Source: an uncultured Clostridia bacterium
GTDB taxonomy: Bacteria > Bacillota > Clostridia > Christensenellales > UBA1242
Direction: 5' to 3'
Length of the DNA: 64,000 bases
Assembly: GCA_930990975.1 (NCBI GenBank)
Contig: CAKNRR010000001.1
Span: 9,756 to 73,755, forward strand
Shown: positions 30,702 to 59,698 of the stretch, one piece after another
Layout: each line of letters opens with the position of its first letter
Numbering within the stretch: the first letter of the stretch is position 1
Made by a program: the position numbers and the translations under genes
The notes under the pieces: generated by a model
Database searches by the model: none
Told to the model about the DNA's origin: nothing
The model's input: the letters and a program-made list of their open reading frames with translations, nothing else

Positions 30702-30874
30702 AAAAATATTAAAATTTTATATAAATATTAAAAAAATAAAAAATAAATAAAAAAAATAATTTAATTATTAAATTAAAATAATTATTTAATAAAAAAATAA
30801 AACAATAAAAAATATTAAATAAATTAATAAATAATTTTATTTATTTTTTTAATTAATTTTTTAAATAATAAATA
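30702..30874. other. 173-bp tract that is essentially pure A/T
   Basis: Between the trmD stop and the rbgA RBS I find a single non-A/T base (C at about 30803). It occupies the slot where rplS normally sits. Confidence 0.9.
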
Positions 30875-43419: not shown

Positions 43420-45087
43420 TTATAGCTCTCTTTCTTCATCAAAGTTTTCGTTTTCAGATTCAATTCCAAGTTTCTCTTTACGGAATTTTTCTCTGCTGTC
43501 TAATGAAGAGTTTACAAAATTTTCAATTTCTTTTTCATCGGTTATTCCATTTATTTTAGCCACGGCTTTAAGACCATTTTTAAGTAGTTGTGTAGGCACG
43601 ACAAGACCACGATTGAAACGCTCGTATTTTGCTTTTAATTCATCATTGTGGTTTTTAATTATTTCTGATAGTTTTTTTTCATGTATAGTTCGATAACTTT
43701 TATATTTAAATTTGTTGCGTACATATTTTCCAACAATAATATCTTTTAGGGGAGACATAATATTCAAATTAATCTCTTTTGCTCTTTTTTCAAGTTGATC
43801 AAAGATTTCTTGATTATTGCATTTGAATTCTTTGAATCTTTTTAGAATATCATAGTCAATATTATTGATGTCAATATTATCTAAATAGTCTTGAAATTCT
43901 TTAAGCTCTGGATATTGTTGTAATATTGTTTCAGGGTAAAATGATGGAACTTTTAGTTCAGCTAAATCATTTAAATTGTGATTTTTAAGAGAAGAAATCA
44001 ACCTTTGTTCACAGCCAGCTTTAAACTTTTCCCTTTCTTGATTATATTTTTCTTCATCAGCTTCAATTTTTTTCTTTAAATCATAGTCTTTTATTATACT
44101 TTCTAAATTCTTCATGTTGAAAATATCACACAGAAAATTATCAGCTGTTTTAACGCTGCTAGGAATAAAATTAATTGAATTGTATTTATATTCATGTTTT
44201 TTATCAATATAAATTTTGTTATTATCATAGAAAATTGGACTTTCAAACATATAATTTGTGTTTTCACCATGTAATTTATAAGAAAATATGTCATTTGGAT
44301 TTAGCATAAAGAAATTAATGGTTGGCAAAGCATTATTACCTTTTTTGCAATCCCAACAGCTATCGTTGTATGTTATATGGTTGATGTTATAAAGAGGGTC
44401 TTTTATATAAACAATATTGTTTGCATGCCCACCAAGCCACTCTTTATTTTCATCTTTGTATACACTAAGCCCTTGATCGAAACAAACAAGCTCATCCTTT
44501 TTGAAAGTACGGTCGCATAGCATTTTCAAAAGAGAGGCAAACCCAGAACAAATTACATGATTAGATGCCAAAACTCCAATCCAATTTCTCATATCATCAT
44601 CAGCAAAATTTTCATTTTCATTATAAACCCGATTTGCTGCAAAGTTATAAACAACTACAAATTTTTCTGCAACAGATAGTTTTCTTTCTTTGCCATTTTG
44701 GTCTTTGATTGTCATGTTGTTAACTTTATCTACAAATTCATCAATAATGTTTTTGGCTATAGTAAAGTTTTTATAGTTGCCAATTCCGTTTTTTAACAAA
44801 AGAACGCAGTCGACACCATTTTCTTCGCAAACTTGATTATAATTTTTTATTTGGGCTAACTCTTGTTCGTCATCAATATAATCTTTTTTGAGATACAAAA
44901 GGATTTTTTCTATTTTTATATTTGTGTTCTTAAGTTTTTCTTTCAGTTTGTCAATTTTGCTTGAACTTGAAAGTTCATATGTAAAAACACGCAAAGAACA
45001 TGGTTTATTTTTCGCGATGATTTTATCCAATGTTAAATCATATAAATAGTTTATTTTTTCATTATCTAAATCATAATTATAGATCAT
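43420..45087 (-). CDS. hypothetical transglutaminase-like (papain-fold Cys-His-Asp) protein
   Basis: C180 (HVICSGFASLL), H221 (WLGGHANNIVY) and D242 (YNDSCWD), with spacing typical of the transglutaminase core. No signal peptide. Very low GC. Confidence 0.5.
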   Translation of the reverse strand: MIYNYDLDNEKINYLYDLTLDKIIAKNKPCSLRVFTYELSSSSKIDKLKEKLKNTNIKIEKILLYLKKDYIDDEQELAQIKNYNQVCEENGVDCVLLLKNGIGNYKNFTIAKNIIDEFVDKVNNMTIKDQNGKERKLSVAEKFVVVYNFAANRVYNENENFADDDMRNWIGVLASNHVICSGFASLLKMLCDRTFKKDELVCFDQGLSVYKDENKEWLGGHANNIVYIKDPLYNINHITYNDSCWDCKKGNNALPTINFFMLNPNDIFSYKLHGENTNYMFESPIFYDNNKIYIDKKHEYKYNSINFIPSSVKTADNFLCDIFNMKNLESIIKDYDLKKKIEADEEKYNQEREKFKAGCEQRLISSLKNHNLNDLAELKVPSFYPETILQQYPELKEFQDYLDNIDINNIDYDILKRFKEFKCNNQEIFDQLEKRAKEINLNIMSPLKDIIVGKYVRNKFKYKSYRTIHEKKLSEIIKNHNDELKAKYERFNRGLVVPTQLLKNGLKAVAKINGITDEKEIENFVNSSLDSREKFRKEKLGIESENENFDEEREL

Positions 45088-45292
45088 ATCAGCCTCTAAT
45101 TAATTATAGTTAAGATAAGTAAAAAAGTCAATAAATAAAATTCTTGAAAAAGTCATATAAAAAAATAAACTACATAAATATATCTTGTAATGGGAAAAAA
45201 TTCGACATTATTCAACTACTTTTATTTGTAATCAACATTTTTCTCATTGCTAATTTTTTAATAATATTTTATCATTAAAAGCGAGGTTTGTA

Positions 45293-46057
45293 ATGCCATT
45301 TTGCGTAATCAAATCAAGAACCATCAAAATCTTTTTAGCCATGCTTGCCGTAGTTATTTTGCTGTGTATATCCTTTGAAGGGGGCGCGTGTGCACAGGTG
45401 TGGTTTGGCAATTCATCAAGACTTGTTCCTATTTATAGAGTAGACACCGAAGAGAAACAGGTTGCAATATCTTTTGATGCGGCATGGGGAGCGGACAAAA
45501 CACAACAAATTTTAGATGTACTAAAAGAATATGAAGTGACTGCAACATTTTTCTTAGTCGGCTTTTGGGTTGATAAGTATCCAGATATGGTGAAAGCAAT
45601 CGACGAAGCTGGGATGGAAATAGGCACGCACTCAAACACACATCCAGACATGGTAAAATTAGATAAGTCGACAATATTAAGTGAGCTTGAAACTTCAATA
45701 TCCAAAATAAAGGACATAACAGGCAAAGAAGTCACAGTTTTTAGAGCTCCTTATGGTTCATATAACAACACTTTATTAAAGACAACGGAAGAGTTGGGAC
45801 TAAAAACAATACAATGGGATGTCGATTCACTTGACTGGAAAGGATTATCAGCAGCTCAGGTTACTGACAGAGTGATGAAAAATACTCAAAATGGTTCAAT
45901 TATACTCATGCACAACAATGCTGACAATGTTGTTGAATCGCTGAGATTGACACTTGATTGGCTTAAGATGAAAGGGTATAAAATCACCAGTGTTGGAGAA
46001 CTTGTATATGGCGAAGATTATACAATAGATTCAAATGGCGTACAGCACAAGAAATAA
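45293..46057 (+). CDS. polysaccharide deacetylase (NodB homology domain, PdaA/PdaB-like)
   Basis: N-terminal TM or signal. It has ISFDAAWG, TFFLVG, HSNTHPDM, FRAPYG and IILMH motifs. Confidence 0.85.
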   Translation: MPFCVIKSRTIKIFLAMLAVVILLCISFEGGACAQVWFGNSSRLVPIYRVDTEEKQVAISFDAAWGADKTQQILDVLKEYEVTATFFLVGFWVDKYPDMVKAIDEAGMEIGTHSNTHPDMVKLDKSTILSELETSISKIKDITGKEVTVFRAPYGSYNNTLLKTTEELGLKTIQWDVDSLDWKGLSAAQVTDRVMKNTQNGSIILMHNNADNVVESLRLTLDWLKMKGYKITSVGELVYGEDYTIDSNGVQHKK

Positions 46058-46068
46058 AAGGAGAAAAT

Positions 46069-46746
46069 ATGAATAATACGACAGCAATAGCAACACCAAA
46101 TAACAAAGGACAAATCGTGGGAAAACTTATAGATGGGGCAGAGAATGTCTTTGAGGTCGAGGGCGAAAAATTTTACGAAGGAAAAATTGCGGTCGAAAGA
46201 TTATCAAATGCAGTTGATTTGTTGCCAATAACCATATCAGAAAAATTGATAAAAGCAAGCAAGATTAAATTTGAAAAGGGAACTTTTCTTGCTTTAGGTG
46301 GCGAACTGCGAAGCTATAACAGACAAATTGATGGGAAAAGTAGACTTATTTTATCATTTTTTGTAAAAGAAGTTTTGGATAGTCAAGATGTTGAGGAGGA
46401 TTGCACCAACAACTTAACATTGACTGGATATATTTGCAAAGAACCCAATTATAGAGTGACTCCTTTTAATAGGCAAATTTGCGACATACTTGTTGCAGTC
46501 AATAGACCAAATTTTAATAAGTCAGACTATATTCCTTGCATTCTCTGGGGAAGAAATGCAAAACTTATGCAAAGCCAAAAGATTGGAACGAAGATAACTT
46601 TGCAAGGTCGAATTCAATCAAGGAATTATAGAAAAGAGATAAAAGAAGGGATATTTGAAGAAAAGACAGCCTATGAAGTTTCTTGTCAAAAATTGTTGAT
46701 AGAAGAAAAAGAAGATGCTGTGACGACAGACGAAGTGAGGGCATAG
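46069..46746 (+). CDS. SSB-like protein with two OB folds
   Basis: The second half matches the SSB pattern (LTGYICKEPNYRVTP...ILVAVNR...DYIPCILWGRNA...LQGRIQSRNY). The first half is a more divergent copy (LPITISEKL...LGGELRSYN). No acidic C-terminal tip of the DDDIPF type is present. Confidence 0.6.
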   Translation: MNNTTAIATPNNKGQIVGKLIDGAENVFEVEGEKFYEGKIAVERLSNAVDLLPITISEKLIKASKIKFEKGTFLALGGELRSYNRQIDGKSRLILSFFVKEVLDSQDVEEDCTNNLTLTGYICKEPNYRVTPFNRQICDILVAVNRPNFNKSDYIPCILWGRNAKLMQSQKIGTKITLQGRIQSRNYRKEIKEGIFEEKTAYEVSCQKLLIEEKEDAVTTDEVRA

Positions 46747-46912
46747 TACAAAACAAAGTTTGTAAAAAGAATCAATGATATAATTTATAAAAAAGGACAT
46801 AATTTATAAATTTTGATTTTTTATTGTTTAAAGAGCATAAATGCTCTTTTTTTTGTTGTTGACATTTCTCTTTGCGCATGTTAAAATAAAATGTCAAAAA
46901 AAGGGGGATAAT

Positions 46913-48826
46913 GTGGGTAAAAAGAAAGAAAAAAATAAAAAAGAATTAAATAATGATGAAAATACTGAAAATTTAGATAATATAAAAGAAAAAAATGATA
47001 AAAAAACAAAAAAGAATAAGATGTCAAGAAAAGAATTGAAAGCTTATAGAAAAGAAAATAATATACCTACATTATGGACTTATTTAAAAGATTACAAATT
47101 TGCAATATTTAGTTATATTTTAATTACGGCAATTTCAATTGGAGCAGGGGTTTATACAACAATTTTGGCTGCTGATGCACTCGCTGATGTGACTGAAGGG
47201 TTTTATCGAAATTCAATTATAAAATTTGCAATAATGACAGGACTGATGATATTTTCAAGAATACTTAACTATTTGCTGAACTTGATCTATTTTAAGTATT
47301 CAACAAAGATTGTATCAAGAATGAATAATGATTTATCTTATCAGGCATTCAAGTTTAGTGCAACCACATATGCGAATAATTCTACTGGGACTTTTGTATT
47401 GAGGATTGTAGATGATCCTAATAGAATTATTGCCCAAATAACATCGGTTGTAGATATAATTGGGAATATAATTGCAAGCGTTATAATAACAATTTATATC
47501 CTTACTTTGAATTACATGGTAGGATTATCTCTAGTTGCATGTGCAATAATATGTTATTTTATCGAAAGTTATAGGATTAAACTTAGAAAGAAGAACAGAA
47601 GAATATCAAACAAAAAGCGCGACAAAATCAATTCTTTAACAACTGAAATTGTAAAAAGCGAAAGAGATATTAAATCTTTAGGACTTGAAAACAAATTAAA
47701 AACAATTTCAAAAGAATATTATGATGATTACAACAGTTTTAATTATAAAATGTCAATGCAAAACACTTCGCTCGTAACAACACGCGCAGTTATAACATTT
47801 ATTTTTTCATTTATTGCTTTATTGCTCGGAATAATATTACTTGAAAAATCATTGCTTGTTTTGGCATCATTTATGGTTATTTATTCCAATAGATCAAGCA
47901 TTATTAATGTAATTTCATTTGCGGGGAATTTATTTGATATTATAAGTGATGTAAAGGTTTACGGAAAGAGGGTTTTTGAACTATTTGATAAAAATGTATT
48001 TCCTGTTGAAACATTTGGGGCTGTTGACTTGCAAGATGTTAAAGGGGAAATTGAATTTAAAAATGTTAGTTATGCTTATGAAGATAAATTGAAAAACAAG
48101 GATGATTTGAATAAAGAAGATGAAGATAGTGAGGTTGTAAAAAGAGATAAAGTTCTTGAAAACTTATCTTTCAAAATAGAGCCAAACACAACAGTTGCTT
48201 TTGTTGGAAAATCTGGAAGTGGCAAATCTACAATTTTGAGTTTGATGTCAAAAATGTATTCAGTTGACGAAGGCGAAGTTCTTATAGATGGCATAAATAT
48301 AAATGACTTAAGTAAAGAGTGCTTAAGAAACAATATTTCTCTTGTAAACCAATTTCCATACATATTTGATATGACAATATATGAAAATCTTTTGATGGCG
48401 AAAGGAGATGCGACAGAGCAGGAGGTGAACGAGGCTATTGAAAAGTCATATTTAAAAGAGTTTATTGATGGCTTGGCTGATGGAATAAATACAGTCGTTG
48501 GAGAAAGCGGAATAAAGCTATCTGGTGGGCAAAGACAGCGACTAGCCATTGCAAGAGCGCTTTTAAGAAAATCAAGGATTATAATTTTTGACGAAAGCAC
48601 AAGCTCACTTGACAATGTTGCACAAGAATATGTGAAGAAAAGTATAGACAATTTGAAAGGGAGCAGCACAATAGTCATAGTGGCTCATAGATTGTCTACT
48701 ATAAAAAATGTTGATAAAATCTTCTTCTTAGAGGATGGCAAAATTACAGATAGCGGAACATTTAAAGAACTGTTTGATAATAATGAACATTTCCATCACA
48801 TGTTCTTAGCGGAAGAAATTGAATAA
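46913..48826 (+). CDS. ABC transporter, fused permease/ATP-binding exporter (MsbA/bacteriocin-exporter type)
   Basis: GTG start after RBS AAGGGGGA. Lys-rich N-terminal tail and 6 TM segments. Motifs are GKSGSGKST, LSGGQRQR and IIIFDESTS. Confidence 0.88.
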   Translation: MGKKKEKNKKELNNDENTENLDNIKEKNDKKTKKNKMSRKELKAYRKENNIPTLWTYLKDYKFAIFSYILITAISIGAGVYTTILAADALADVTEGFYRNSIIKFAIMTGLMIFSRILNYLLNLIYFKYSTKIVSRMNNDLSYQAFKFSATTYANNSTGTFVLRIVDDPNRIIAQITSVVDIIGNIIASVIITIYILTLNYMVGLSLVACAIICYFIESYRIKLRKKNRRISNKKRDKINSLTTEIVKSERDIKSLGLENKLKTISKEYYDDYNSFNYKMSMQNTSLVTTRAVITFIFSFIALLLGIILLEKSLLVLASFMVIYSNRSSIINVISFAGNLFDIISDVKVYGKRVFELFDKNVFPVETFGAVDLQDVKGEIEFKNVSYAYEDKLKNKDDLNKEDEDSEVVKRDKVLENLSFKIEPNTTVAFVGKSGSGKSTILSLMSKMYSVDEGEVLIDGININDLSKECLRNNISLVNQFPYIFDMTIYENLLMAKGDATEQEVNEAIEKSYLKEFIDGLADGINTVVGESGIKLSGGQRQRLAIARALLRKSRIIIFDESTSSLDNVAQEYVKKSIDNLKGSSTIVIVAHRLSTIKNVDKIFFLEDGKITDSGTFKELFDNNEHFHHMFLAEEIE

Positions 48827-48872
48827 AAAATATTAAGAAAGCTAAATATTTCAACAAAAAAACACAATACTA

Positions 48873-49064
48873 TTATTGTGTTTTTTTGTTATAGATATCA
48901 TGTTTAGAATTATTGCTTGAATTATCCGCAATATTTTCTTCGACAACGACTTTAAATTTTTTGCCGTCAATCAATTGAATTGTGAAAATATTCCCATTTT
49001 GAGTAATTTTTGCATTTAAGTCTTCTTCAAGTGTTAAAGCTAAAATATCTATAATATCGTTCAT
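48873..49064 (-). CDS. small hypothetical protein
   Basis: 63 aa with a good RBS (AAAGGAGAAC). The 3' end runs into the terminator hairpin at 48855..48888. Confidence 0.4.
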   Translation of the reverse strand: MNDIIDILALTLEEDLNAKITQNGNIFTIQLIDGKKFKVVVEENIADNSSNNSKHDIYNKKTQ

Positions 49065-49219
49065 AATGTTCTCCTTTGTTTTTAAATTTTTATACTAGCG
49101 GTAGAAAGTCTACGCAAGTATTATACCTTATTTTTTATTACAATTAAAGAGAATTATTTGACTTGTTTTGTCGGTTGATAAGCTTTTTTGTCGAATATTT
49201 TTTATTAAATGGGGAATGA

Positions 49220-49657
49220 ATGAGCTTTAGTGAAATTTTGAATGATTTAATCATAGATAATGGCTTAACAAAAAGACAAGTTGCTATTAAATGCAAGATT
49301 ACGACTTCGCAAATGACCTCGTTTTTGAGAGGGGCAATACCAAGCATAGAAACAGCAGTGAGAATAGCAAACTATTTTTCATGCTCTTTAAACTATTTGA
49401 TGGGAATTGATGAATATAAAGACCAAACAAAGATTACAAATGAGGAATATGATTTAGAAAATTTTTTTGATAGATATAATAGGGTGTTGGAGCTAAATAA
49501 AATAAGCCATTGGAGGCTTTGCCAAAACTTGGAGATAAGCGAGTCTAACATAAGAGGTTGGAAGAGAGGCGCAGTTCCAAAACTTGATACTCTTGCAAAA
49601 ATATCATCTTACCTTAATTGCTCAATTGATTATTTGCTTGGAAGAGCAAAAAATTAA
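49220..49657 (+). CDS. XRE-family regulator with two HTH_3 domains
   Basis: Two copies of the LT/ISxxxxAxxxxISxSxISxWxRG-type HTH (GLTKRQVAIKCKITTSQMTSFLRG and ISHWRLCQNLEISESNIRGWKRG). Confidence 0.8.
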   Translation: MSFSEILNDLIIDNGLTKRQVAIKCKITTSQMTSFLRGAIPSIETAVRIANYFSCSLNYLMGIDEYKDQTKITNEEYDLENFFDRYNRVLELNKISHWRLCQNLEISESNIRGWKRGAVPKLDTLAKISSYLNCSIDYLLGRAKN

Positions 49658-49676
49658 GCGAAGTGAAAGCTTATTT

Positions 49677-50042
49677 TCAAATTGAGTGTTCTTCAATTTG
49701 TTTTTCAATCCAAGCCATAATAAGACCAACAATAAAATTGATTTCTTTTTCATTTAGTGTTTTATTCATAGAAATTTTGTGCCATTTAAATAGGCAGTTT
49801 CGACAGCAGGTTGCCGTGGCATGTTGTGCTATGAAAACAGGGTGACCTTTCATAGGTGTTTGCTTTCCATCATTGATTGGATTTGCTGGAGCTAGGCGCT
49901 TAGATATAAAGTCATAAGCATGGACTTTGATTGTGTCAAAACCCTTTTTATTGATATAATCAATGTCGTTTTCTTTTAATATAAACTTGCTTCTAAATTT
50001 AGAAGATTTTAATTTTAATAAGATTTCGCTGTAATCGTTCAT
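49677..50042 (-). CDS. DUF4186-like protein
   Basis: GHPVFIAQHATATCCRNCLFKWH motif, as I remember for DUF4186. Confidence 0.65.
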   Translation of the reverse strand: MNDYSEILLKLKSSKFRSKFILKENDIDYINKKGFDTIKVHAYDFISKRLAPANPINDGKQTPMKGHPVFIAQHATATCCRNCLFKWHKISMNKTLNEKEINFIVGLIMAWIEKQIEEHSI

Positions 50043-50076
50043 GTTTTCATTTTATCATAATTCGACATTAATTAAT

Positions 50077-50106
50077 AAAAAAATCACGAAATTTCGTGAT
50101 TTTTTA
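50077..50106 (-). terminator. terminator downstream of the M60 peptidase gene
   Basis: aaaaaatcacgaaa / tttcgtgatttttt palindrome flanked by A and T runs. Confidence 0.7.
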
Positions 50107-50112
50107 TGCTTT

Positions 50113-53100
50113 TTACCAAATTATTATTGAATCTAAATTAAAACTCCCTTTTGTTTTAATTTTAATTTCATGTTCTCCGTCATTCAAAACATTGGATAAG
50201 AAAACAATTTTGTTTGCCTCTTCGTTTGCTATATTAGAAATTGTATCAAATTTTTTGCCGTCTATATAGACATCAAATGAAGATATTTTTTCTCCTGCAA
50301 AAGACATGATTGCAAATTGTGAACCATTGAAATTAAATTTTAATTCAATATTTTCTCCAACATAATTATGCCCAAAAGTAGATAAGTGATTTTCGATTTT
50401 CCAATTTCCAAAATATTCTATTCGCTTGTCGTCAGGGGATAACTGTGTTCCATTTTCAATATTGTATGAAAATTCTGCATATCTATAAGCAATATATTTG
50501 GTTGCAGGTGCTGTTGTATCAGTTACAACAAGTTTGTAATATCTTAACGATGTTAAAGCAATGTTTAACACGACATTGTTGCCTGTGATACTTAGATTTT
50601 CTTGTTCATTGATTAATTCAAGGTTGTCAAGAGTTGTCCCTGCGTAAAGCTTGAATGTTTTTGGGAGATATTTTTTTGAAGGTTCACCATAAATTGTGAA
50701 TGTGTTTGCAGTTATGGTTTCACCCAAATCAACAGTTAGCTCAAATGGATTGTTGCTATTAATTGGTGTTCTGTTTGAGTGAATGAAGTTGGTTTTGTTG
50801 TCATCAAAGAGGTTTGATATAGGGTAATTTTCATCCCATGGTTGATAATTTGTTTCAACTAAAGTTTGTGCTTTATCTGGTGTGTCATGATAAGTATAGG
50901 CAAAATTGTGTGTATAAAAATATTCTGAAGTGAATTCCTCATATTCATAAGAATTTCTATAGGCATTAAGATAGCTTACAGATACATTGTCACCATTAAA
51001 TTTGCCCCAGCCAACACCAATGAAGCTTCGTTCATAAGTTACCATAAGCGTAGCTTTGAAATACAACCACTGTCCTTCTTCAAGTGATAAATCATGATAA
51101 TGTTCAGGGTTTGTTAAGTCAAAATCTGGACTGTTTGTTTGATTGTTGACTTTCGCAACACAATTAAAGGTTGTTCCGTCTGTGGATATATAGAGATTGG
51201 CATATCTTCGTGCTCTTAAAGCAATTCGATATTTTCCTGTATCTTTGATAAGAATTTTACCCTTTATTTCCATAATTGCATTGTTTGTTGGCTTTGGATC
51301 CCATATTTCTGCGTTTCCATTTTGGACATTGTTGATATTGTCCTCATATTTTACTGTTTGATAACCTGCATAATTGTTTTTATAAGCTTCATCAAGTGAA
51401 GAATACATTGTATCGTTTGTATAAGTGTAAACTGTTCGTTCGAGCATGCTGCTGTCAACAGCTTGTTCAAATTCAAGCACTAAGTCGACATCTTCAACAT
51501 TGAAGGCTTTGTCATCTTTTGTGATTGACAATGTAACAATGATTTCACCTGATGCTTTTTGAGTTTCGCTTGGAATGTAAGTGTAAGTACCATCAGTATT
51601 GTCGACTATTCTTCCATTTTTAGGGGAGGTTATATTTTTGATTTTATAAGAAAAGCCACTTGGCAAAATAATATTGTTTTTAAGGTCAATCAAAAAGTTT
51701 TCATTTGCTGGAATTTGATAAGGTTGGACAGTCTTGCTGAACTGTTTTTGACCTTGATACAAAAAGCTTCGACCTGTTTGATAAATTGTGGCAACTGGGA
51801 CATAGATAGGATAACCTTTGCTTTGCACTTCTTGTTTTACATTGTCAGATATTGTTTGATGTAACAGGCTTTCAAAATAATAAGTCATGTCATATTGCAT
51901 TGTTTCACAAAGAGATTTATACCATGTATCAGCACCGCCAGAGCCATTGCCATATTGAGTTGCCTTGATGAAGAGTTCTTGACCAAAAGTATGCAAAATG
52001 TTCGCATAAGTGTCAAGATTGCTGTTTTTTGATGATGTGTTCAGCGTTTGCTTTAAAACCCAACTTGGATTTGTATATCTGTTCCAACTTGTCGCATAAT
52101 TACCTTGGTTTGCATTGGCTAAAGAGCGTCTTGAAGAAATTTTTGTGAAAAGACTATAAGAAACAAGACTTACTGCGTTGTTTGTTACTTCATCGCCAGG
52201 CGAAAATCCGAATTTTTGATAATGATGGTTAAACTCATGGATGCAACCCCAGAAAGGATCAGAAGCATTCGTCACAGCACTTTCATAATCAAGTGCAGCT
52301 GTAAGACAATTGAGAGGGCAGTTTACTGTATAACGCCCAACAAATGCAACCATACTTCCGGCTGCGATGAAAGGATCATATAAGAATGTTATCCCAACAT
52401 CTCCAGGAGAGCCGGAAGGAACATTATTTGAAACAAGTGCGATTTTGTCCCAAAGCACTGCGGCTTTATATAGGTCATAATAATCAAATTGTTTGACTCT
52501 GCTGTTTGGTCCAGAATGTCTTACTCCATCATACCAAACTTCCAAATCAAAATAAGGTGCAGAAGATTGATTGAATTCAAACTCTTCTTCTGATGTGTAA
52601 CCAAGGATAAAGTGTGAATATTTTACAGCTCCTGAAATTGTTATAGTAAAAGTTGTGTTTTTATTGATTGGCTCTACATAAATTGGTCCGCCAAGATAAG
52701 AGCCGACATAAGCAGTCGATGAATTTATGGTCATGGTATTGACAATGTATGGCATACGATTAAAATCTCTTTCCAGCCAAATATTGTTTGCTTGACCATT
52801 TGTTAAAATCTGACCAATATGGATTTTTACTCCACCAGTTTTTGCCAAATCGTCTTCTGAGATTTCTATTTTTACAACTTCACCAGCAGGTGCATATAAA
52901 CCCGTAATATGATTTCCTCTGCTTCGTGATTTGATTGTCATTCTTTTTATAACTGCTTCTTCACTGTCACTAACATTGCCTTCATACATTCCAACTGAAG
53001 CGGTATGTTTGTATAGATGTCGACCTGTGGACACACCATTAAGGTAAAGGTTTCCTTGTTCATCCATGCTATCATAAGATGATGAAGAGGCATTTAAAAG

Positions 53101-53397
53101 TTGATTTTCATTTGTTATTGCTTGCTTTTCTTCTTTAGTTGCTCCAGACAACATTTGCCCATAAACAGGGTAGCGAGCAAGCCCTTCGTTTGATAGCTCT
53201 GGCAAGCTTCTTTTTGTCGTTCCTAAATATTCGGCTTGATATCCAACTTTGCTAAAGTTTGGATAAGAAAAAGAGAAGCCTTGCAAGTTTTCTGATGAGC
53301 GCGGTTTAAATATAAAAATAAAAACACCTGTCAAGACTAATAATAAAATTAATGCGATAATAGCAATGATAATTTTGCTCTCTTTTGTTTTTTTCAT
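50113..53397 (-). CDS. M60 (enhancin-like) zinc peptidase with PA14-like and F5/8 type C (discoidin/CBM32-like) modules
   Basis: Start at MKKTKESK after a GGAG RBS. Signal anchor. The zinc site is HEFNHHYQ...GDE. A PA14-like segment (GKYRIALRARRYANLYISTDG) and a discoidin-like segment (ISNLFDDNKTNFIHSN...FTIYG) are present. Confidence 0.8.
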   Translation of the reverse strand: MKKTKESKIIIAIIALILLLVLTGVFIFIFKPRSSENLQGFSFSYPNFSKVGYQAEYLGTTKRSLPELSNEGLARYPVYGQMLSGATKEEKQAITNENQLLNASSSSYDSMDEQGNLYLNGVSTGRHLYKHTASVGMYEGNVSDSEEAVIKRMTIKSRSRGNHITGLYAPAGEVVKIEISEDDLAKTGGVKIHIGQILTNGQANNIWLERDFNRMPYIVNTMTINSSTAYVGSYLGGPIYVEPINKNTTFTITISGAVKYSHFILGYTSEEEFEFNQSSAPYFDLEVWYDGVRHSGPNSRVKQFDYYDLYKAAVLWDKIALVSNNVPSGSPGDVGITFLYDPFIAAGSMVAFVGRYTVNCPLNCLTAALDYESAVTNASDPFWGCIHEFNHHYQKFGFSPGDEVTNNAVSLVSYSLFTKISSRRSLANANQGNYATSWNRYTNPSWVLKQTLNTSSKNSNLDTYANILHTFGQELFIKATQYGNGSGGADTWYKSLCETMQYDMTYYFESLLHQTISDNVKQEVQSKGYPIYVPVATIYQTGRSFLYQGQKQFSKTVQPYQIPANENFLIDLKNNIILPSGFSYKIKNITSPKNGRIVDNTDGTYTYIPSETQKASGEIIVTLSITKDDKAFNVEDVDLVLEFEQAVDSSMLERTVYTYTNDTMYSSLDEAYKNNYAGYQTVKYEDNINNVQNGNAEIWDPKPTNNAIMEIKGKILIKDTGKYRIALRARRYANLYISTDGTTFNCVAKVNNQTNSPDFDLTNPEHYHDLSLEEGQWLYFKATLMVTYERSFIGVGWGKFNGDNVSVSYLNAYRNSYEYEEFTSEYFYTHNFAYTYHDTPDKAQTLVETNYQPWDENYPISNLFDDNKTNFIHSNRTPINSNNPFELTVDLGETITANTFTIYGEPSKKYLPKTFKLYAGTTLDNLELINEQENLSITGNNVVLNIALTSLRYYKLVVTDTTAPATKYIAYRYAEFSYNIENGTQLSPDDKRIEYFGNWKIENHLSTFGHNYVGENIELKFNFNGSQFAIMSFAGEKISSFDVYIDGKKFDTISNIANEEANKIVFLSNVLNDGEHEIKIKTKGSFNLDSIIIW

Positions 53398-53667
53398 AAT
53401 ACTCCTTTGCTTTTTAATGTATTTTAATGATAACACATTTATTTAGAAAAAACCATAGTTATGGACAATATTTTTATAACAAAAGATCAGCTTTCTCTTT
53501 ATATTGCATGAATTGAAATTTTAAGTTTGATTCAAATTCTTTTGCTAAGCTATAAAAACTGCATGATAAAATAAAGAGGGTTGGAAAATAAAAAATGAAA
53601 ATAGTAATAAAAAATAATAAAAATTACAATAAAAAAACTATGACATGTGCCATAGTTTTTATTTTTC

Positions 53668-54018
53668 TTAGTTGTTGTCTGCAGATTTGATTTTTGCAGC
53701 TTTTCCAGTCAATTCGCGAACATAGTATAATTTTGCTCTTCTTGGGCTACCTTTTCTCACAACATCAATACTTGCAACGATAGGTGAGTGTAAAGGGAAA
53801 GTTCTTTCAACGCCAACACCATTAGATATTTTTCTAACAGTGAAGCTTTCTCTAACAGCGCCATTTTTACGAGCGATAACAACGCCTTCATAGGCTTGGA
53901 TTCTTTCTTTATCGCCTTCCTTGATTTTAACACCAACTCTAACAGTATCACCGATGTTAAATTCAGGTATAGACTCTTTCATATTTTCCTTTTCAATTTG
54001 GTCAATAATGTTAGCCAT
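53668..54018 (-). CDS. rplS: 50S ribosomal protein L19
   Basis: [34 protein letters not shown]...RTFPLHSP. A terminator hairpin lies at 53631..53662. Confidence 0.96.
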
Positions 54019-54085
54019 TGTAATTCTCCTTTTAATAGATTTTTATAAAGTGCAATTTTGCACAAGGTATGGTAAAAAATTGATT

Positions 54086-54280
54086 TTAGCCTCTTTTTCT
54101 AGCTCTTTTGCGAGCGGCTTCTCTTTTCTTCTTTTTAGCAACGCTAGGCTTATCATATGCTTCTTTTTTTCTTATATCACCGATAATACCATCTTTTTGG
54201 CATTTTCTTTTAAATCTTTTTAAAGCACTTTCAAGACTTTCGTTTTCGCCTACTTTAACAGTTGTCAATCTTCTCACCAC
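54086..54280 (-). CDS. rpsU: 30S ribosomal protein S21
   Basis: [25 protein letters not shown] plus a basic C-terminus. The true start may be the TTG at 54268, after RBS AAGGTGGTGA. Confidence 0.93.
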
Positions 54281-54387
54281 CTTCTAATTTTAATAGTCTT
54301 ATATAATATAGCATAATGAGTTTAGGATTGTCAAGGGAAAATAAGATTTAAATTATGAAAACATGAAAAATATAATACTTTAAGCTA

Positions 54388-54416
54388 TTGACTTTTATGA
54401 TTAATAAGGATATACT
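54388..54416 (+). promoter_or_regulatory. sigma-A type promoter for the tandem-HEPN gene
   Basis: TTGACT, 17 bp, TATACT. Confidence 0.5.
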
Positions 54417-54433
54417 AAGATTAAGAAGGGTAT

Positions 54434-56218
54434 ATGGATTATAGTTTTAATATAGATGATTTAACATTAGATGCATTTAAGAGATTGATTAATAAAAAGA
54501 AAACTATTTTAATTAATGAAAAAAATAATAATGAAACTTTAAGCGAAGAAGATATAGATATAATAAACCTATATCATAATATAAGAATGGTTTTGTATAT
54601 CAGAGAGAAGAAACTAGATTTTATCAATTTCAAGAAACTTTCGCAAGATGAAGATTATAAAAAATTAAAAGAAATATTGTTTAATTCATTGATGGGTAAA
54701 GACGACTTAGATTTATGTTGTGATATACGAAATTGTTTTGCACATAATAGTTTTGATATTGAAAAGAACAATGGGAAACTGAGAATAAACTTATATTTTG
54801 ATGGTACAAATTCAATTCCTGTTACCCCAGAGGAATTAAATCAATATGTTTCGCTTTTAGTTAAACATATTGATAAAAATCTGATTGAAAAGAATTTTAA
54901 TATTATTACTGATAAGAAAAATAAGATAGATATGCTTGACAGATTTGATGCAATGGTTGTGAAAGATCTTTTATTAAAACTTTTAAACAAGAGCGACAGT
55001 GTTACTTTTGAAAACGGAAATATTAAAGTAAAAAATAATATAATGTTAGATTTGAATGAAGGGGATTTGCCAAATAGCATATTAAAAAAAGATGTGTTAT
55101 ATAAAAAAGTAGAAAAAGATTTGATAAATTTCTTAAACAAATATTCACAGGCAAATCAAAAAGATAAAGAAAACATTGCTTCTGACATATTAAAACTTTA
55201 TAAGTTTGATAGAAATGACGAAAAATTTTTAAGATCAATAATAAACAATGGTAAAAATAGGATTCCTAAACGAGATAAAAACAAAATTAAAGATATTTTG
55301 GTCAAGAACAATGTGTTAAAATTAATTAATGATTTAGAACGAGATAAAATTTTGTCTATTTTAAAGATTAAGGATAGGAAGAAGAGCCTTTTATTCAACA
55401 TATTATCAAAAGAAAACAAATCGGCAATAAAAAATTTTTATATTGATGATATAAAATATGATCAACTTATGTCTTATGATATAGTAAACAATATGTTTAA
55501 TAATGAGTTATTGTTAGATATGGGAAGCAGTTATAATGAATTAATAGCAAAAGTTAATAAAAACTTAAGATTAAAGTCAAACATAGAAACAAAGCTATTA
55601 TCAAATACGGGCTACTCTATTTATAGATTCACTAATGAAAAGAAGCTGGTTGGTCAAGACATCTTAGATATGTTGTTATTTACATTTTCAAAGTGTTTTG
55701 ATAAAGATTTGGTTGATAAAACTTTATACAATAAAGATTTATTTTTACAATCGGTACTATTAAAAAACAACATAAAGGGACATAAAGTTTTTGATGAACT
55801 GCTAACTTTAAGAAACTCTATAATTCATGGCGATTATAACATTAATAAAGATGGAACTATAACTGTGTATAGTTATACTTATGATAAAAAGAATATAATG
55901 CAAAAAATAAAAAAGAATATAAAAGTTTTGCAATATAACAAAAAGCCAATAGAAGAAATTTATAAGGAAAAGCATATAGGTCGAATTTATAATTTATGTA
56001 CAAAATTCCCTTTATCTTCAATATATACTTCAATTTATGAAAAGGAAGCATGTCAAAACCCTGAGATATTAAAGGAATTGACATCGAAGACTTTATCTTA
56101 TGATGAATTGATAAAATTATGCGATATTTTAGTAAATATATATGAGAGTAATAAAATGCTTCATAATAATATAAGTTTAAATAATGTAAATAATAATTAT
56201 TTTGAGAAATCATGTTAA
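54434..56218 (+). CDS. stand-alone protein with two HEPN-type R-N-x3-H motifs (putative RNase/defence toxin)
   Basis: R99NCFAH104 and R460NSIIH465. Both motifs are followed by a similar [FY][DN]I[EN]K[ND]xGxLxIxxY-like segment. GC is very low. Confidence 0.6.
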   Translation: MDYSFNIDDLTLDAFKRLINKKKTILINEKNNNETLSEEDIDIINLYHNIRMVLYIREKKLDFINFKKLSQDEDYKKLKEILFNSLMGKDDLDLCCDIRNCFAHNSFDIEKNNGKLRINLYFDGTNSIPVTPEELNQYVSLLVKHIDKNLIEKNFNIITDKKNKIDMLDRFDAMVVKDLLLKLLNKSDSVTFENGNIKVKNNIMLDLNEGDLPNSILKKDVLYKKVEKDLINFLNKYSQANQKDKENIASDILKLYKFDRNDEKFLRSIINNGKNRIPKRDKNKIKDILVKNNVLKLINDLERDKILSILKIKDRKKSLLFNILSKENKSAIKNFYIDDIKYDQLMSYDIVNNMFNNELLLDMGSSYNELIAKVNKNLRLKSNIETKLLSNTGYSIYRFTNEKKLVGQDILDMLLFTFSKCFDKDLVDKTLYNKDLFLQSVLLKNNIKGHKVFDELLTLRNSIIHGDYNINKDGTITVYSYTYDKKNIMQKIKKNIKVLQYNKKPIEEIYKEKHIGRIYNLCTKFPLSSIYTSIYEKEACQNPEILKELTSKTLSYDELIKLCDILVNIYESNKMLHNNISLNNVNNNYFEKSC

Positions 56219-56261
56219 TATGTTTATAAAAAAGGATGTTCAAAATTTTGATATTTGATTA

Positions 56262-56291
56262 AAAAATGCTAGGTATAGTCCTAGCATTTTT
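56262..56291. terminator. bidirectional terminator between the HEPN gene and mtaB
   Basis: aaaaatgctagg / cctagcattttt 12-bp stem with loop tatagt. Confidence 0.75.
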
Positions 56292-57582
56292 ATTTTCGTA
56301 TAATTTTGACTAAAGCGCCGTCCTTAAAAGGGGATAAGATTTTGACATCAACAATGCTGTCAATGATTTCATCTTTGTTCTTTAATGATTGTATTGGGAT
56401 ATAGCATCTTATATAGTTTTTGCTGTATCCAACATAATAGTCATCTATTTTTTCTTCAATCAAAACTACTTCATTTTTGTTTTTGCTTACGAAGTTTGTT
56501 TTTAATTCTTCATTTAAGGCATTAAGCTTTTCAAATCTTTTTTGTTTGATTTGTGGTGCAAGGTCTTTATATAATTTTGAAGCAACAGTGCCGTCTCTGT
56601 TTGAATATTGAAAGATATGCAGTTGGCTAAAGTTCACATCTTTAATGAAGTTGAAAGTTTCTTCAAATTCCTCCTCACTTTCACCAGGGAAGCCGACAAT
56701 AACATCTGTTGTTATTCCAGCCAAAGGGAAATATTTTCTGATAAGTGAAACGCTTTCTTTAAATTCTTTTGCAGTGTAGTGCCTGTTCATTCGTTTAAGC
56801 ACGCTGTCACTTCCGCTTTGAAGAGATAAGTGAAAATGAGGACAAAAATTGTTAAGTTTGCTTAGTCCTTTCACAAATTCTTCACTCACAAGGCTTTCTT
56901 CCATTGAAGACAAACGCAATCGTTTGCCAAAGGTATCAAGCTCTTGAAGCAGAGTTAAAAGTGCAGGCTTACCGTCTATTTTATAGTCGGTTACATTTAT
57001 CCCAGTAAGCACAATTTCTTTTATGCCATCATCAAGCTTTGACACTTCGTCAATAATAGAGAATATTGCTCTTGACCTGCTTCTTCCTCTTAAGTATGGG
57101 ATTATGCAATAAGAGCAGAAGTTATTGCAACCATCTTGTATTTTTATATAAGCACGAGTCCTAGATTGTTGAGCAAACAAATCATCTTCATATGCTTTTG
57201 GCAATTTCAATATTCGCTCGCGTTTGCGAAGCAATCTTTTGTCGTTTTTGGCAAGTTTGTCAATATAAGTTGAAATTTTTATTTTCCCAGCGACACCACA
57301 AACATAGTCAACATTCTTTTCAAAGAATTGTTCAGAATTCTTTTGACTTGCACATCCACATATAAAGAATTTGGCATTTGGATTGAATTTTCTGCATCTT
57401 GCAATCATTTGTCGAGATTTCTTTTCAGCTTCTTGCGTGACAGCACAGGTATTGATAACATAAATGTCGGCAGGCTCAAGAGATTCTGTCGTTTGATATC
57501 CTTTAAGTTTCAAATTATACACCAGTGCATCACTTTCATATTTGTTCACTTTGCACCCAAGTGTCATTACACATATTTTCAT
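56290..57582 (-). CDS. mtaB: tRNA t6A37 methylthiotransferase MtaB
   Basis: MTTase N-domain (MTLGCKVNKYES), radical SAM CNNFCSYCIIP, and a TRAM-like C-terminus. Confidence 0.9.
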   Translation of the reverse strand: MKICVMTLGCKVNKYESDALVYNLKLKGYQTTESLEPADIYVINTCAVTQEAEKKSRQMIARCRKFNPNAKFFICGCASQKNSEQFFEKNVDYVCGVAGKIKISTYIDKLAKNDKRLLRKRERILKLPKAYEDDLFAQQSRTRAYIKIQDGCNNFCSYCIIPYLRGRSRSRAIFSIIDEVSKLDDGIKEIVLTGINVTDYKIDGKPALLTLLQELDTFGKRLRLSSMEESLVSEEFVKGLSKLNNFCPHFHLSLQSGSDSVLKRMNRHYTAKEFKESVSLIRKYFPLAGITTDVIVGFPGESEEEFEETFNFIKDVNFSQLHIFQYSNRDGTVASKLYKDLAPQIKQKRFEKLNALNEELKTNFVSKNKNEVVLIEEKIDDYYVGYSKNYIRCYIPIQSLKNKDEIIDSIVDVKILSPFKDGALVKIIRK

Positions 57583-57912
57583 AGCAAAGATATTTTAGCA
57601 AAGTTTTCAACAAAAATCAACAAATGTAAAAACAAAAATTATAAATAATAAAATCAAAAATAAAAAATAATTAAATAAATTCGACAAAAAAATAAAAAAT
57701 AAAATTAAAATTATTATTTAAAAATAAATTAATTATATTTTATTATTTTTTTAATTATTATTTTCAATTATTTTTAACTTTTTTATTAAAAAAATATTTT
57801 TTATTATTTTAATATTATTTTGATGTTTTTTAATGTTATTTTATTTGGTTTAAACAAAATTGATGAAACAACATATCTTGTAATAGGGTTGTGTAAGAAA
57901 AAAGGGGAGATT

Positions 57913-59250
57913 ATGTCTTTTATACAGCGTTATTCAACTATAGAACGAGGAGGTATTCGTTTTATAGGGAACACTTTAGGGCTCAGCAAAATTTCAAATG
58001 CTTTGGCTGCTGGTGCTTTGGGCTCTATAGGTGCTTTTACTTCGTTAACTAATAATCAGTTTTCAAATTTCCCAGTAGGCAGTACTTCAAATTATTTAGA
58101 AAATGGGTCAAGTGCAAATTTGAACTTACCAGTTGGAAGCACAATACTTCATGCAGAATTGGTTTGGGGCGGTCTTTATAGGTCGCAAACTCAAGACATT
58201 TCAAACTTGCTTGACAATGCGGTGACTTTTATAGCAGGAGGCAATTCTTTAAGCATTTCTCCTGATCCAACCACATCTCAAAATTTTTTAATACCTGATC
58301 AAGCGTTTCCATTAGGCTTTTATGTTAGAACAGCTGATGTGACGAATATTGTTTCAACAGTCTTAAACGGGCAGTATTCGCTCACTCAAGTTCCTGCACT
58401 GTTGATTGCAAATGATAATCAGACCAGCCAAACAAATCATGCTGGTTGGACTCTTTGTAATAAATTAGGAGAAAAAATATGTTTATAACCAATCAATCAA
58501 ATGTAACATTCATTTTTGTTTTGCCAGATGGAAGCACAGTTCCAGGGCAAGCTGAAAGTAATATAGTCAGCACAGAAATAATTTCTGTTGACTTCAGCAA
58601 GTTGAAAGCTACACCTCGTTCGTTTATAGAAGAGGATGAGATGACAACGCAAACTGTAACTTTGACAAACAACACACTTTATCCAATAACCAATTTGTTC
58701 TTTAACGATTCATTGGGCAATGACGCAACTCATGTTCCTGCATCAGTTGTGATAGATAATGTAAGCTATCCAGGATATGTATTGTTACAGGTTTCAATTT
58801 ACCTGATTTGCCTGTTGGCGGAAGCACAACAATTGCTTATACTGTCATAGCAGACAACCCAAAAACCCAAGACAGCGTTGATAACTTTGCTACAGTAAAT
58901 TATACTATTGACGACCCAATAAGTGGTCCTAGAGAATTTACAGAAAACACCAACACCGTTCCTTTGCTGTTATTGCATTGTCTTTAAGCGTTGTAAAGAG
59001 CGTTGATAAAGGGGTTGCGAATAGAGGAGAAATATTGACTTATACTTCGTTAATAACCAACACTGGGACTCAAACCGTTACCGATTTGGTATTCTCAGAT
59101 GTGTTGCAACCTGACATAACATTTGTGCCTAACTCAGTTAAAATCAATGATGTTTTGCAACCAGGACTCAACCCAATTACAACATTTGCATTGCCTAATC
59201 TGTCAGTTGGCGCAAGCGTAAAAGTTGAATTCCAAGTAGTAGTCAATTAA
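57913..59250 (+). pseudogene. frameshifted DUF11 (conserved repeat domain) surface or spore-appendage-like gene
   Basis: Three ORF fragments (57913..58488, 58479..58850, 58978..59250), plus an unlisted frame segment that I translated (TGFNLPDLPVGGSTTIAYTVIADNPKTQDS...). Together they read as one protein: an N-domain (IERGGIRFIGNTLGLSK) plus DUF11-like repeats (SVVKSVDKGVANRGEILTYTSLITNTG). The frame breaks near 58465..58488, 58790..58800 and 58950..58965. Confidence 0.6.
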
Positions 59251-59260
59251 AGAGGTGAGT

Positions 59261-59698
59261 ATGCAAGTGATAAATAATGTTTCAAGTGTTACAGTTTCGA
59301 CTGCAGAACAACCAACAACATTTTTTAGCAATAATGTTCAAACGCTTATAAATTCGCCAATAAATCCGTCACCATGTCCTCCAGCAATTTGCTTCTTTTT
59401 CGATTTTGATGAAAATTGTTTCTTTAGAGTTTGCAATCAAAATGATTTTTGCAATTGTTGCCCTAATAATGGGGGACAGCCACGCGATATTATGTTAGGA
59501 AATTGGGATAATAATAACAACTGCAATAATTGTAATGGTTTTGGGAATAATATGAACAATTGGAACAATCAATGTCATAAATCAAATTGCCCATGCAGAA
59601 ATTGGTGTAACTGCCAATGGAATAATTGTGAAAGAAGATGTCATGATTGCAGGAATTGTCCAATATGTGCCGCACTATTGCTGTGTTGTTTATGCTAA
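59261..59698 (+). CDS. Cys/Asn-rich small protein
   Basis: RBS AGAGGTG. The C-terminal ~100 aa are packed with Cys and Asn (CNCCPNN, CNNCNGFGNN, CHKSNCPCRNWCNCQWNNCERRCHDCRNCPICAALLLCCLC). Confidence 0.6.
   Translation: MQVINNVSSVTVSTAEQPTTFFSNNVQTLINSPINPSPCPPAICFFFDFDENCFFRVCNQNDFCNCCPNNGGQPRDIMLGNWDNNNNCNNCNGFGNNMNNWNNQCHKSNCPCRNWCNCQWNNCERRCHDCRNCPICAALLLCCLC

Follow-up and report, generated by a model that had tools for sequence, protein, structure and literature searches.

An uncultured Clostridia bacterium carries, antisense between its mtaB and rpsU genes, an open reading frame (ORF) of 594 amino acids (aa) with two HEPN-like RNxxxH motifs, and the question raised by this locus is what kind of protein the ORF encodes and what such a protein might do there. 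We addressed it in a stretch of 64,000 nucleotides (nt) from this organism (GenBank assembly GCA_930990975.1, contig CAKNRR010000001.1, positions 9,756 to 73,755), hereafter referred to as the window, whose numbering is used throughout; homologous loci and proteins are designated by L and P numbers, respectively. A first-pass annotation of the same DNA had proposed a single-gene RNA-targeting defence or toxin module, or a CRISPR-less relative of type VI effectors. The reading that we favour, and to which we give about an even chance on the strength of sequence comparison and of analogy with characterized systems, is that of an autoinhibited, single-chain tandem-HEPN ribonuclease (RNase) serving as an accessory toxin or abortive-infection module.

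A tandem RNxxxH protein under purifying selection

The coding sequence extends on the forward strand from an ATG start at position 54434 to position 56218 (54434..56218). A regular-expression scan of its product for Rx4-6H returned exactly two motifs, both of the RNxxxH form and both where the first-pass annotation had read them, namely R99-N-C-F-A-H104 (54728..54745, +) and R460-N-S-I-I-H465 (55811..55828, +). Each displays the hallmark of HEPN domains, Rx4-6H with a polar residue (N, D or H) after the arginine. From the composition of the protein, which has 16 arginines and seven histidines, 0.023 RNx3H motifs per protein are expected by chance, and the probability of finding two or more is ~2.6e-4. 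The N-terminal HEPN-like unit (~aa 38-150; 54545..54883, +), predicted to be made of helices, the motif, a beta-hairpin and another helix, is the region matched by all distant relatives and the best-modelled part of the protein, and gives weak matches to pEK499_p136, RTasHEPN and Cas13b. It is followed by a helical inter-unit region (aa 151-399; 54884..55630, +), ~100 aa longer than in the relatives P0010 and P0011, and by a C-terminal HEPN-like unit (~aa 400-520; 55631..55993, +), which includes a conserved FDKDxxY block and yields sub-threshold HEPN matches in Pfam and PADLOC.

Word-indexed searching of 5.8 billion proteins retrieved only sequences of the same species, 96-99% identical to the query, and the same search with a four-sequence profile again returned same-species proteins only. 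Exhaustive phmmer searching of 1.84 billion representative proteins added only three distant relatives: P0010 (514 aa, E 1e-13), P0011 (495 aa, E 8e-6) and P0012 (303 aa and a single unit, E 2e-4). A further protein, P0014, is 83% identical to P0010. The full-length protein had no significant match in Pfam, NCBIfam, PADLOC, PHROGs or the sequences of the PDB, and no source that we consulted gives a name for it or for P0010, P0011 and P0012. On the evidence of these searches, the family is a nearly orphan, very rare and previously undescribed one.

The relatives were informative as to which residues are retained. P0010, P0014 and P0011 have kept both RNxxxH motifs in the same helix-motif-beta-hairpin-helix context, and both motifs are likewise present in two divergent alleles occupying the mtaB-rpsU slot, P0046 (87% identical) and P0018. 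Across all tandem relatives, at 25-87% identity, the R, N and H of both units are invariant, as is the beta-hairpin after each motif; the same three residues are also invariant in the single unit of P0012. Loss of the R/H pairs in homologues, which the first-pass annotation had named as one observation that would speak against its proposal, was thus not seen. P0012 lies on a contig of only 998 bp and could be what is left, at the N-terminal end, of a tandem gene that has been interrupted, as in the 370-aa alleles described below, so that no conclusion was drawn as to its being an ancestral single-HEPN form.

The ratio of nonsynonymous to synonymous substitution rates (dN/dS) was 0.22 between P0010 and P0014 and 0.19 between the window gene and the 87%-identical allele of L095. 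Within the latter pair it was lowest in the C-terminal unit (0.06), followed by the inter-unit region (0.11) and the N-terminal unit (0.23), and was relaxed over the last 70 residues (0.68). Ratios of 0.19-0.22 argue that the protein is functional and, as judged from these substitutions, the gene is real and under purifying selection.

Probable assignment of the two units to the HEPN superfamily

When searched alone against Pfam, the C-terminal unit matched HEPN_Cthe2314 (E 1.6e-3), RiboL-PSP-HEPN (E 1.7e-3) and MAE_28990 HEPN (E 4e-3), and against PADLOC it matched Csx1 and CARF_HEPN, all below threshold. The N-terminal unit alone matched the Cas13b model of PADLOC at its HEPN2 end (E 2e-4), and the whole protein gave a sub-threshold match to PADLOC RTasHEPN. 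Similar sub-threshold matches were obtained with the units of the relatives, which hit HEPN pEK499_p136 twice as well as RTasHEPN, and with full-length P0010 and P0014, which hit DUF4209, a family described as a eukaryotic tandem HEPN (Yoon et al.). About half of all sub-threshold matches were to HEPN models, at least eight of which were reached in this way, and each of these aligned RNxxxH with the catalytic motif of the family. Conserved motifs and convergent sub-threshold matches to several HEPN families together lead us to regard the two units as probable HEPN-type catalytic units.

A catalytic HEPN domain is expected to fold as an up-down bundle of four helices, to place its motif at the dimer interface and to act as a metal-independent RNase. 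Structure prediction was less conclusive. A single-sequence AlphaFold model was useless (predicted local distance difference test [pLDDT] 38), and a model built from eight sequences was mediocre (pLDDT 54, predicted TM-score 0.51), with its best values in the N-terminal unit (70-89), helical structure around both motifs and a hairpin after each. Foldseek searching with the latter model, the check that the first-pass annotation had recommended, returned nothing significant from the PDB or BFVD and no match with E<0.3; the HEPN fold was therefore not confirmed by this route. Sequence and profile searches of the PDB likewise found no HEPN structure.

The first-pass annotation had further read the shared context of the two motifs as an internal duplication of the catalytic unit. 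Profiles of the N- and C-terminal units aligned over 37 columns covering the motif and the hairpin (hhalign probability 44%, E 2.4e-4), with a score above those of 199 of 200 column-shuffled controls. The alignment is nonetheless that of a motif block rather than a whole-domain match: it is compatible with duplication, and only to that extent does the proposal stand.

An alternative that bears directly on these data is that the protein is not a nuclease at all, RNxxxH being kept for structure or ligand binding, either in an inactive HEPN domain like that of AbiA or in a non-HEPN helical protein, with a role as sensor, scaffold or regulator. Catalytically inactive HEPN domains are documented (AbiA; PMC13064643), and the lack of any HEPN profile match above threshold and the empty fold searches speak for this explanation. 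We consider it quite unlikely, in view of the invariance of R, N and H in both units while their surroundings vary, of sub-threshold matches that centre on catalytic HEPN families with R and H placed on the family motif, and of the low probability of two chance RNx3H motifs.

A lineage-specific insertion between mtaB and rpsU

By Pfam, the flanking genes encode ribosomal proteins S21 (rpsU, 54086..54280, -) and L19 (rplS) and, on the right, an MtaB-type radical-SAM methylthiotransferase (56290..57582, -). A scan for MtaB in one genome per species of GTDB yielded 80 loci, from uncultured Clostridia and Christensenellales-like metagenome-assembled genomes (MAGs). The best match was 81% identical, indicating that the window's own species is not among the GTDB representatives. 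In the seven closest informative loci (L009, L010, L011, L013, L014, L017 and L018; MtaB 66-81% identical), mtaB and rpsU are separated by 70-140 bp with nothing inside, and no mtaB-rpsU locus of the scan holds a relative of the 594-aa ORF. The order at the empty sites is mtaB stop codon, short spacer, rpsU promoter and a leader, AAATTAGAAGGTGGTGAGAA; no terminator was found at the junction in these relatives. In the window, the same promoter (TTGACA-18-TATATT with a TG element; 11 of 12 consensus positions) lies intact at 54305..54334 on the reverse strand and marks the left edge of the insertion. The inserted block may therefore be placed at ~54335-56289 (54335..56289), a lineage-specific insertion of ~1.95 kb that reaches from the rpsU promoter to the mtaB stop codon and carries its own promoter and terminator. 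The antisense insertion inferred in the first-pass annotation was thus borne out by relatives in which the pair is adjacent and the gene absent. Within the species complex, the gene was always found in the mtaB-rpsU slot (L001-L003 and L091-L097).

Other Clostridia have different genes in the same slot. Unrelated cargo on the same strand as mtaB includes a secreted HExxH-like protein of ~400 aa, a sigma-70-like protein, a membrane protein and, in Christensenellaceae-like genomes, a HIT-family protein (L012 9338-10543, L015 9328-10512, L019 1535-2173, L016, L025, L030, L041, L045, L048, L050 and L051). Since other relatives hold unrelated cargo in it, the slot is permissive; insertions have entered it repeatedly among related Clostridia.

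The gene also stands apart in composition. Its GC content is 23.0%, as against 34.3% in mtaB and 31.7% in the rest of the window, and is the lowest among the 36 window ORFs of at least 200 codons. The AT-richness noticed at first sight in a single line of sequence was thus confirmed over the whole gene, which is compositionally foreign. What was found is the reverse of a core gene of native composition, a gene absent from the closest relatives and with a GC content of 23%.

Disrupted alleles exist as well. A 1-nt deletion (GAATTAATAGC to GAATTATAGC) in codon 371, equivalent to nt 55544-55546 of the window, was present in at least four independent samples (L091-L094) and on at least two haplotype backgrounds. 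It lies outside any homopolymer and splits the gene, in the inter-unit region between the two motifs, into ORFs of 370 and 182 aa. The gene is accordingly dispensable, being split in some strains. On the grounds of the empty site in seven close relatives, the three housekeeping loci occupied by the family (see below), the GC content of 23% versus 32% and the frameshift allele, the gene is a lineage-restricted accessory gene.

Synonymous divergence (dS) between the window and L001 was 0.0095 in the HEPN-like gene, 0.148 in mtaB and 0.084 in an M60 peptidase gene. Nucleotide identity between the two over window positions 44500-57500 is a mosaic, ranging from 93 to 100% per 250 bp, which suggests frequent recombination in the species. 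As this mosaic runs all along the locus, we make no claim of a recent sweep or gene-specific transfer from the low dS of the gene.

Loci of the relatives and a probable second paralogue

The distant relatives occupy other sites. The genes for P0010 and P0014 (L004 1617-3161, L008 4361-5905) are convergent with an operon of a small membrane protein, yabQ and yabP near gatCAB; upstream of them the gene content varies, one arrangement having nothing but hsp20 and the other encoding a HAD hydrolase, a 300-aa protein and an S41 peptidase. The gene for P0011 follows holB, PSP1, a methyltransferase and a glycosyltransferase in MAG CAZVYB01, a genome that itself has an empty mtaB-rpsU site (L013). Members of the family are therefore found at three distinct sites among housekeeping genes. 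As a possible partner we considered the 300-aa protein encoded upstream of P0010 and rejected it, for it is missing in L007 and, in L008, the S41 peptidase gene intervenes. Between hsp20 and the yabQ/yabP operon there is a variable region, on whose border the P0010-type gene stands, and a T-box leader lies next to this locus (L004 5506-5780 and L008 8258-8532), upstream of a class II aminoacyl-tRNA synthetase gene (tRNA-synt_2, Asp/Asn/Lys type).

The tetranucleotide signatures of P0010-type loci correlate with that of the window at r 0.88-0.94, compared with 0.925 between the two halves of the window and only 0.63-0.70 for the nearest GTDB relatives. Index blocks containing one or the other subfamily numbered 35 and 36, and sample ERR14032786 contained divergent variants of both. 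From the tetranucleotide match, the similar numbers of index blocks and the co-occurrence, it is probable that the same species complex carries a second, ~30% identical paralogue of the P0010 type at another housekeeping locus.

The nature of these neighbourhoods brings up the possibility of a cellular, non-defence RNase of this Clostridia lineage, engaged in RNA processing or linked to stress or sporulation, and lineage-specific by chance. The genes around every locus of the family are housekeeping or sporulation genes (rpsU and mtaB; yabP, yabQ and gatCAB; holB and PSP1), purifying selection is strong, two paralogues have probably been retained in one species, and expression appears from the consensus-like promoter to be constitutive. 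A gene with such a role would hardly be expected, however, to be missing from the closest relatives and extremely rare overall; its frameshifts in several strains, its atypical GC content and the non-orthologous sites of its paralogues and relatives are accessory rather than core features. We therefore regard a cellular RNase as unlikely, while giving it more weight than any other alternative.

Expression signals and a putative autoinhibited RNase

A sigma-A-type promoter of the gene's own, TTGACT-17-TATACT, lies at 54388..54416 (+) and matches the consensus at 10 of 12 positions. Because promoter-like sites are common in the AT-rich DNA of the window (38 found versus 28.5 expected), this promoter by itself is weak evidence; the call is strengthened by the fact that every homologue has a near-consensus promoter abutting its start codon, as seen at the P0010, P0014 and P0011 loci. 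The leader is very short (~11 nt) and, as read from the sequence, a Shine-Dalgarno-like AAGAAGGG (54423..54430, +) ends 3 nt 5' of the ATG. At the other end of the gene is an intrinsic terminator hairpin (56262..56291) with a 12-bp stem flanked by an A-run and a T-run, and hence bidirectional; since it touches the stop codon of the convergent mtaB, it serves both genes. The promoter and terminator of the first-pass annotation could both be located in this manner, and its two negative observations hold: there is no co-directional small ORF that might encode an antitoxin, the rpsU and mtaB neighbours being on the opposite strand, and no tandem or spaced repeat array within the 64-kb window. An Rfam scan of the window detected two tRNAs and no other family. 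Repeat arrays were also lacking at ~10 homologue loci, L001, L004 and L008 among them, and no Rfam RNA adjoins the gene at L004, L008, L089, L090 or the window locus at either gathering or permissive thresholds. The spacer downstream of the gene is a terminator hairpin of ~70 nt that differs between paralogues.

These signals bear on whether a small RNA might keep the protein in check, as in type III toxin-antitoxin systems of the AbiD/F kind, in which a cis-encoded RNA neutralizes a HEPN toxin. The AbiD/F proteins belong to the HEPN RNases, carry an RNxxAH motif, are common in Firmicutes and are regarded as ancestral to Cas13 (PMC12165695; PMC12737573; see also PMC13064643 for background), which lends the idea some appeal. 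Neither the protein, nor its units, nor the relatives matched Pfam Abi_2 (PF07751) at E<=10, however, and the antitoxin RNA RF03085 was absent, along with other RNA families, from the window locus and from L004, L008, L089 and L090. Promoters that abut the start codons of P0010, P0014 and P0011, and the ~11-nt leader in the window, leave no room for an upstream RNA; moreover, the protein has two units instead of one. With no Abi_2, no RF03085 and no leader long enough for an RNA antitoxin, AbiD/F membership fails, and regulation by such an RNA is highly improbable. Nor was there an operonic antitoxin gene as in HEPN-MNT or other type II toxin-antitoxin systems, the upstream neighbours of P0010-type genes being variable.

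Given a strong constitutive-type promoter and no antitoxin, the enzyme, if an active RNase, must be autoinhibited. In the mechanism that we propose, two HEPN-type units, each an R-N-x3-H motif with its beta-hairpin, would be joined in one polypeptide by the ~250-aa helical region between them and would pack together into one composite RNase site per chain, as in Cas13, Cas13an and array-less tandem-HEPN clusters. This site would be held closed, plausibly by the conserved inter-unit helical region, and would open on a cue such as phage infection or stress, whereupon the enzyme might cut cellular or invader RNA (tRNA, rRNA or mRNA) and bring about growth arrest. A patchy distribution, non-orthologous sites, low GC content and natural knock-outs are the attributes of an accessory gene that fit a defence or toxin role, and by analogy with single-gene HEPN systems we infer that the role may be one of defence.

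Several observations weigh against the autoinhibited tandem-HEPN RNase as we picture it. No profile match attained a curated threshold, and the fold search was, as said, empty. Similarity between the two units, and between the units and Cas13an, is confined to a motif block of 22-37 columns. Every neighbourhood of the family consists of housekeeping genes and forms no defence island, with neither an adjacent mobility gene nor a recognized defence gene, and no relative was found in phage or plasmid collections (by tblastn), in IMG/VR or in JGI metagenomes (with the family profile). Of the single-gene defence or toxin module first proposed, what stands is thus a stand-alone, selected accessory gene, and what is missing is any support from its surroundings. 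As neither the housekeeping surroundings nor the empty searches of phage, plasmid and viral collections lend a defence or toxin role independent support, we hold the overall reading at an even chance and keep the cellular RNase in play beside it.

Structural variation upstream of mtaB

The other side of mtaB is variable too. A locus for CLIPPER-domain surface proteins upstream of mtaB (window 57820-59698) is degenerate by comparison with L091 (8154-10728), having suffered an internal deletion of 1,145 bp at ~58454 and 1-nt deletions at 58779 and 58960, and other strains have intact genes of 596 and 257 aa at this place. Positions 59255-59698 hold a 147-aa ORF very rich in cysteine and asparagine (CNCC and NNNNC runs) and without a Pfam match, which in L002, L092 and L096 has a conserved 145-aa counterpart on the downstream side of the CLIPPER genes. 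Immediately upstream of mtaB (window 57600 onwards), the sequence of L001 (13226-13591) is entirely different and includes a second DUF4186 gene in place of the CLIPPER cluster; both sides of mtaB are therefore structurally variable. Two extremely AT-rich intergenic tracts of the window (57609-57845 and 30693-30870) contain degenerate short tandem repeats (periods of 7-25) and are not CRISPR-like.

Similarity to Cas13an is confined to the motif

Cas13an proteins, ancestral type VI effectors of 429-577 aa with a rearranged (2-3-4-1) order of HEPN helices, include three out of 13 whose genes have no adjacent array (PMC12165695). The same study describes ten further clusters with intramolecular HEPN dimers and no arrays, two of them from Bacillota. 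Its existence undercuts an argument of the first-pass annotation, which had called the protein much smaller than Cas13 and thereby overlooked both Cas13an and the array-less tandem-HEPN clusters. Two of the array-less proteins, described by Yoon et al. (2024; Fig. S1, Table S2), are G7MBT4 ('HEPN_Cthe2314 domain-containing'; Clostridium sp., 467 aa) and A0A1Y6ANL6 (Bacillus mobilis, 509 aa).

We compared our family with Cas13an and these two proteins by the first 400 aa of each. Against Cas13an, hmmsearch scores did not exceed 7 bits, and hhalign returned a probability of 28-30%, its alignment spanning 22 columns within the catalytic block (72 when the full-length profile was used). There was no signal against the first 400 aa of G7MBT4 or A0A1Y6ANL6, hmmsearch scores against G7MBT4 being negative. 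The PADLOC Cas13b match of the N-terminal unit (E 2e-4) was considered as a sign of Cas13 kinship and set aside, since the N-terminal units of P0010, P0011 and P0012 did not reproduce it.

An RNA-guided, Cas13an-like type VI effector, with its array elsewhere in the genome or lost (an orphan effector), would account for a protein of 594 aa with relatives of 495-514 aa, at or near the Cas13an range, for the existence of Cas13an genes without arrays, and for a block, RN-x-[IV]-[AI]-H-[GN]-x-aromatic, that resembles Cas13an HEPN2 and scores above 199 of 200 column shuffles; the Cas13b-HEPN2 profile match might be counted in its favour as well. Arguing against it are the lack of an array in 64 kb or at the ~10 homologue loci, the low hmmsearch and hhalign values just given, the failure of the Cas13b match to recur in relatives, and a downstream spacer that is merely the ~70-nt terminator hairpin and differs between paralogues. 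This explanation has very little probability in our estimation. As far as sequence comparison can tell, membership in Cas13 or Cas13an is not supported, there being no array at the loci covered and the similarity being motif-confined and non-significant; the kinship with type VI effectors suggested in the first-pass annotation accordingly did not hold up. A related idea, in our view a long shot, would make the family a sister to the Cas13an/AbiD-F lineage, or its precursor, without arrays: a fused two-HEPN RNase of Clostridia that would already form its active site within one chain and would be under the control of an RNA bound to it, whether derived from the host or encoded at another site.

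Discussion

What the locus would mean depends on which of these readings is right. The single-chain HEPN dimer is the defining architecture of Cas13, and its array-less relatives are at the heart of the current debate over how HEPN toxins gave rise to type VI CRISPR systems (from AbiD/F to Cas13an/Cas13e to Cas13). The present family, extremely rare and under clear purifying selection, has been missed by all curated profile libraries; its members resemble Cas13an in size, knock-out alleles occur naturally, and each genome probably has two paralogues. Should its product turn out to be a tandem-HEPN RNase that is both active and autoinhibited, the family would provide an independent example of HEPN fusion and a tractable single-gene system in which to study silencing and triggering without a guide RNA or an antitoxin. 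Were it a sister or precursor of the Cas13an/AbiD-F lineage, it would represent a surviving step on the way from HEPN toxins to the RNA-guided effectors of type VI, and would offer a new compact scaffold for RNA targeting. If it turns out to be one more HEPN toxin and nothing else, an orphan gene of gut Clostridia will at least have gained a useful annotation.

Comparison with known systems

Among HEPN RNases that act without an antitoxin, the single-gene defence systems DARNA/PD-T7-3, ApeA and HepS are autoinhibited enzymes whose trigger is presumed to be an infection cue and whose targets are presumed to be tRNA or other RNA (bioRxiv 10.64898/2026.02.22.705581); the mechanism proposed above is patterned on them. 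They resemble the protein described here in consisting of one gene with no antitoxin, and differ from it in having one HEPN per chain and forming dimers or higher oligomers; in PADLOC, neither the protein nor the units of its relatives matched any of the three. AbiD/F toxins have in common with it an RNxxxH motif of HEPN type, hosts among the Firmicutes and a mode of action presumed to be growth arrest but, unlike it, they have one HEPN per chain, form homodimers and need the upstream RNA antitoxin RF03085.

Cas13an comes closer in layout, with two R-phi-xxxH motifs in one small protein, no other cas genes nearby in either case, and a HEPN2 motif block (RNxIAH[GN]G followed by aromatic or beta residues) that the block found here resembles; the differences are the missing CRISPR array and a host that is a Clostridia gut bacterium. 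Since Cas13an and array-less clusters with intramolecular HEPN dimers have already been described, neither the architecture class nor the size of the protein is new. The nearest counterparts in overall organization are G7MBT4 and A0A1Y6ANL6, which are also single chains of ~470-600 aa with two Rx4-5H units, from Bacillota hosts, without a CRISPR array and of uncharacterized function. HEPN_Cthe2314, the domain of G7MBT4-type proteins, is in addition the top Pfam match of the C-terminal unit, although at 18.9 bits, against a cut-off of 27.1 and in that unit only, it does not place the protein in that cluster. The family from the window differs from these two in the beta-hairpin right after each catalytic histidine and in its longer inter-unit region. 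While not demonstrably a relative of Cas13, it would thus appear, as far as its sequence allows it to be placed, to be a new family within a known kind of protein, the stand-alone tandem-HEPN proteins.

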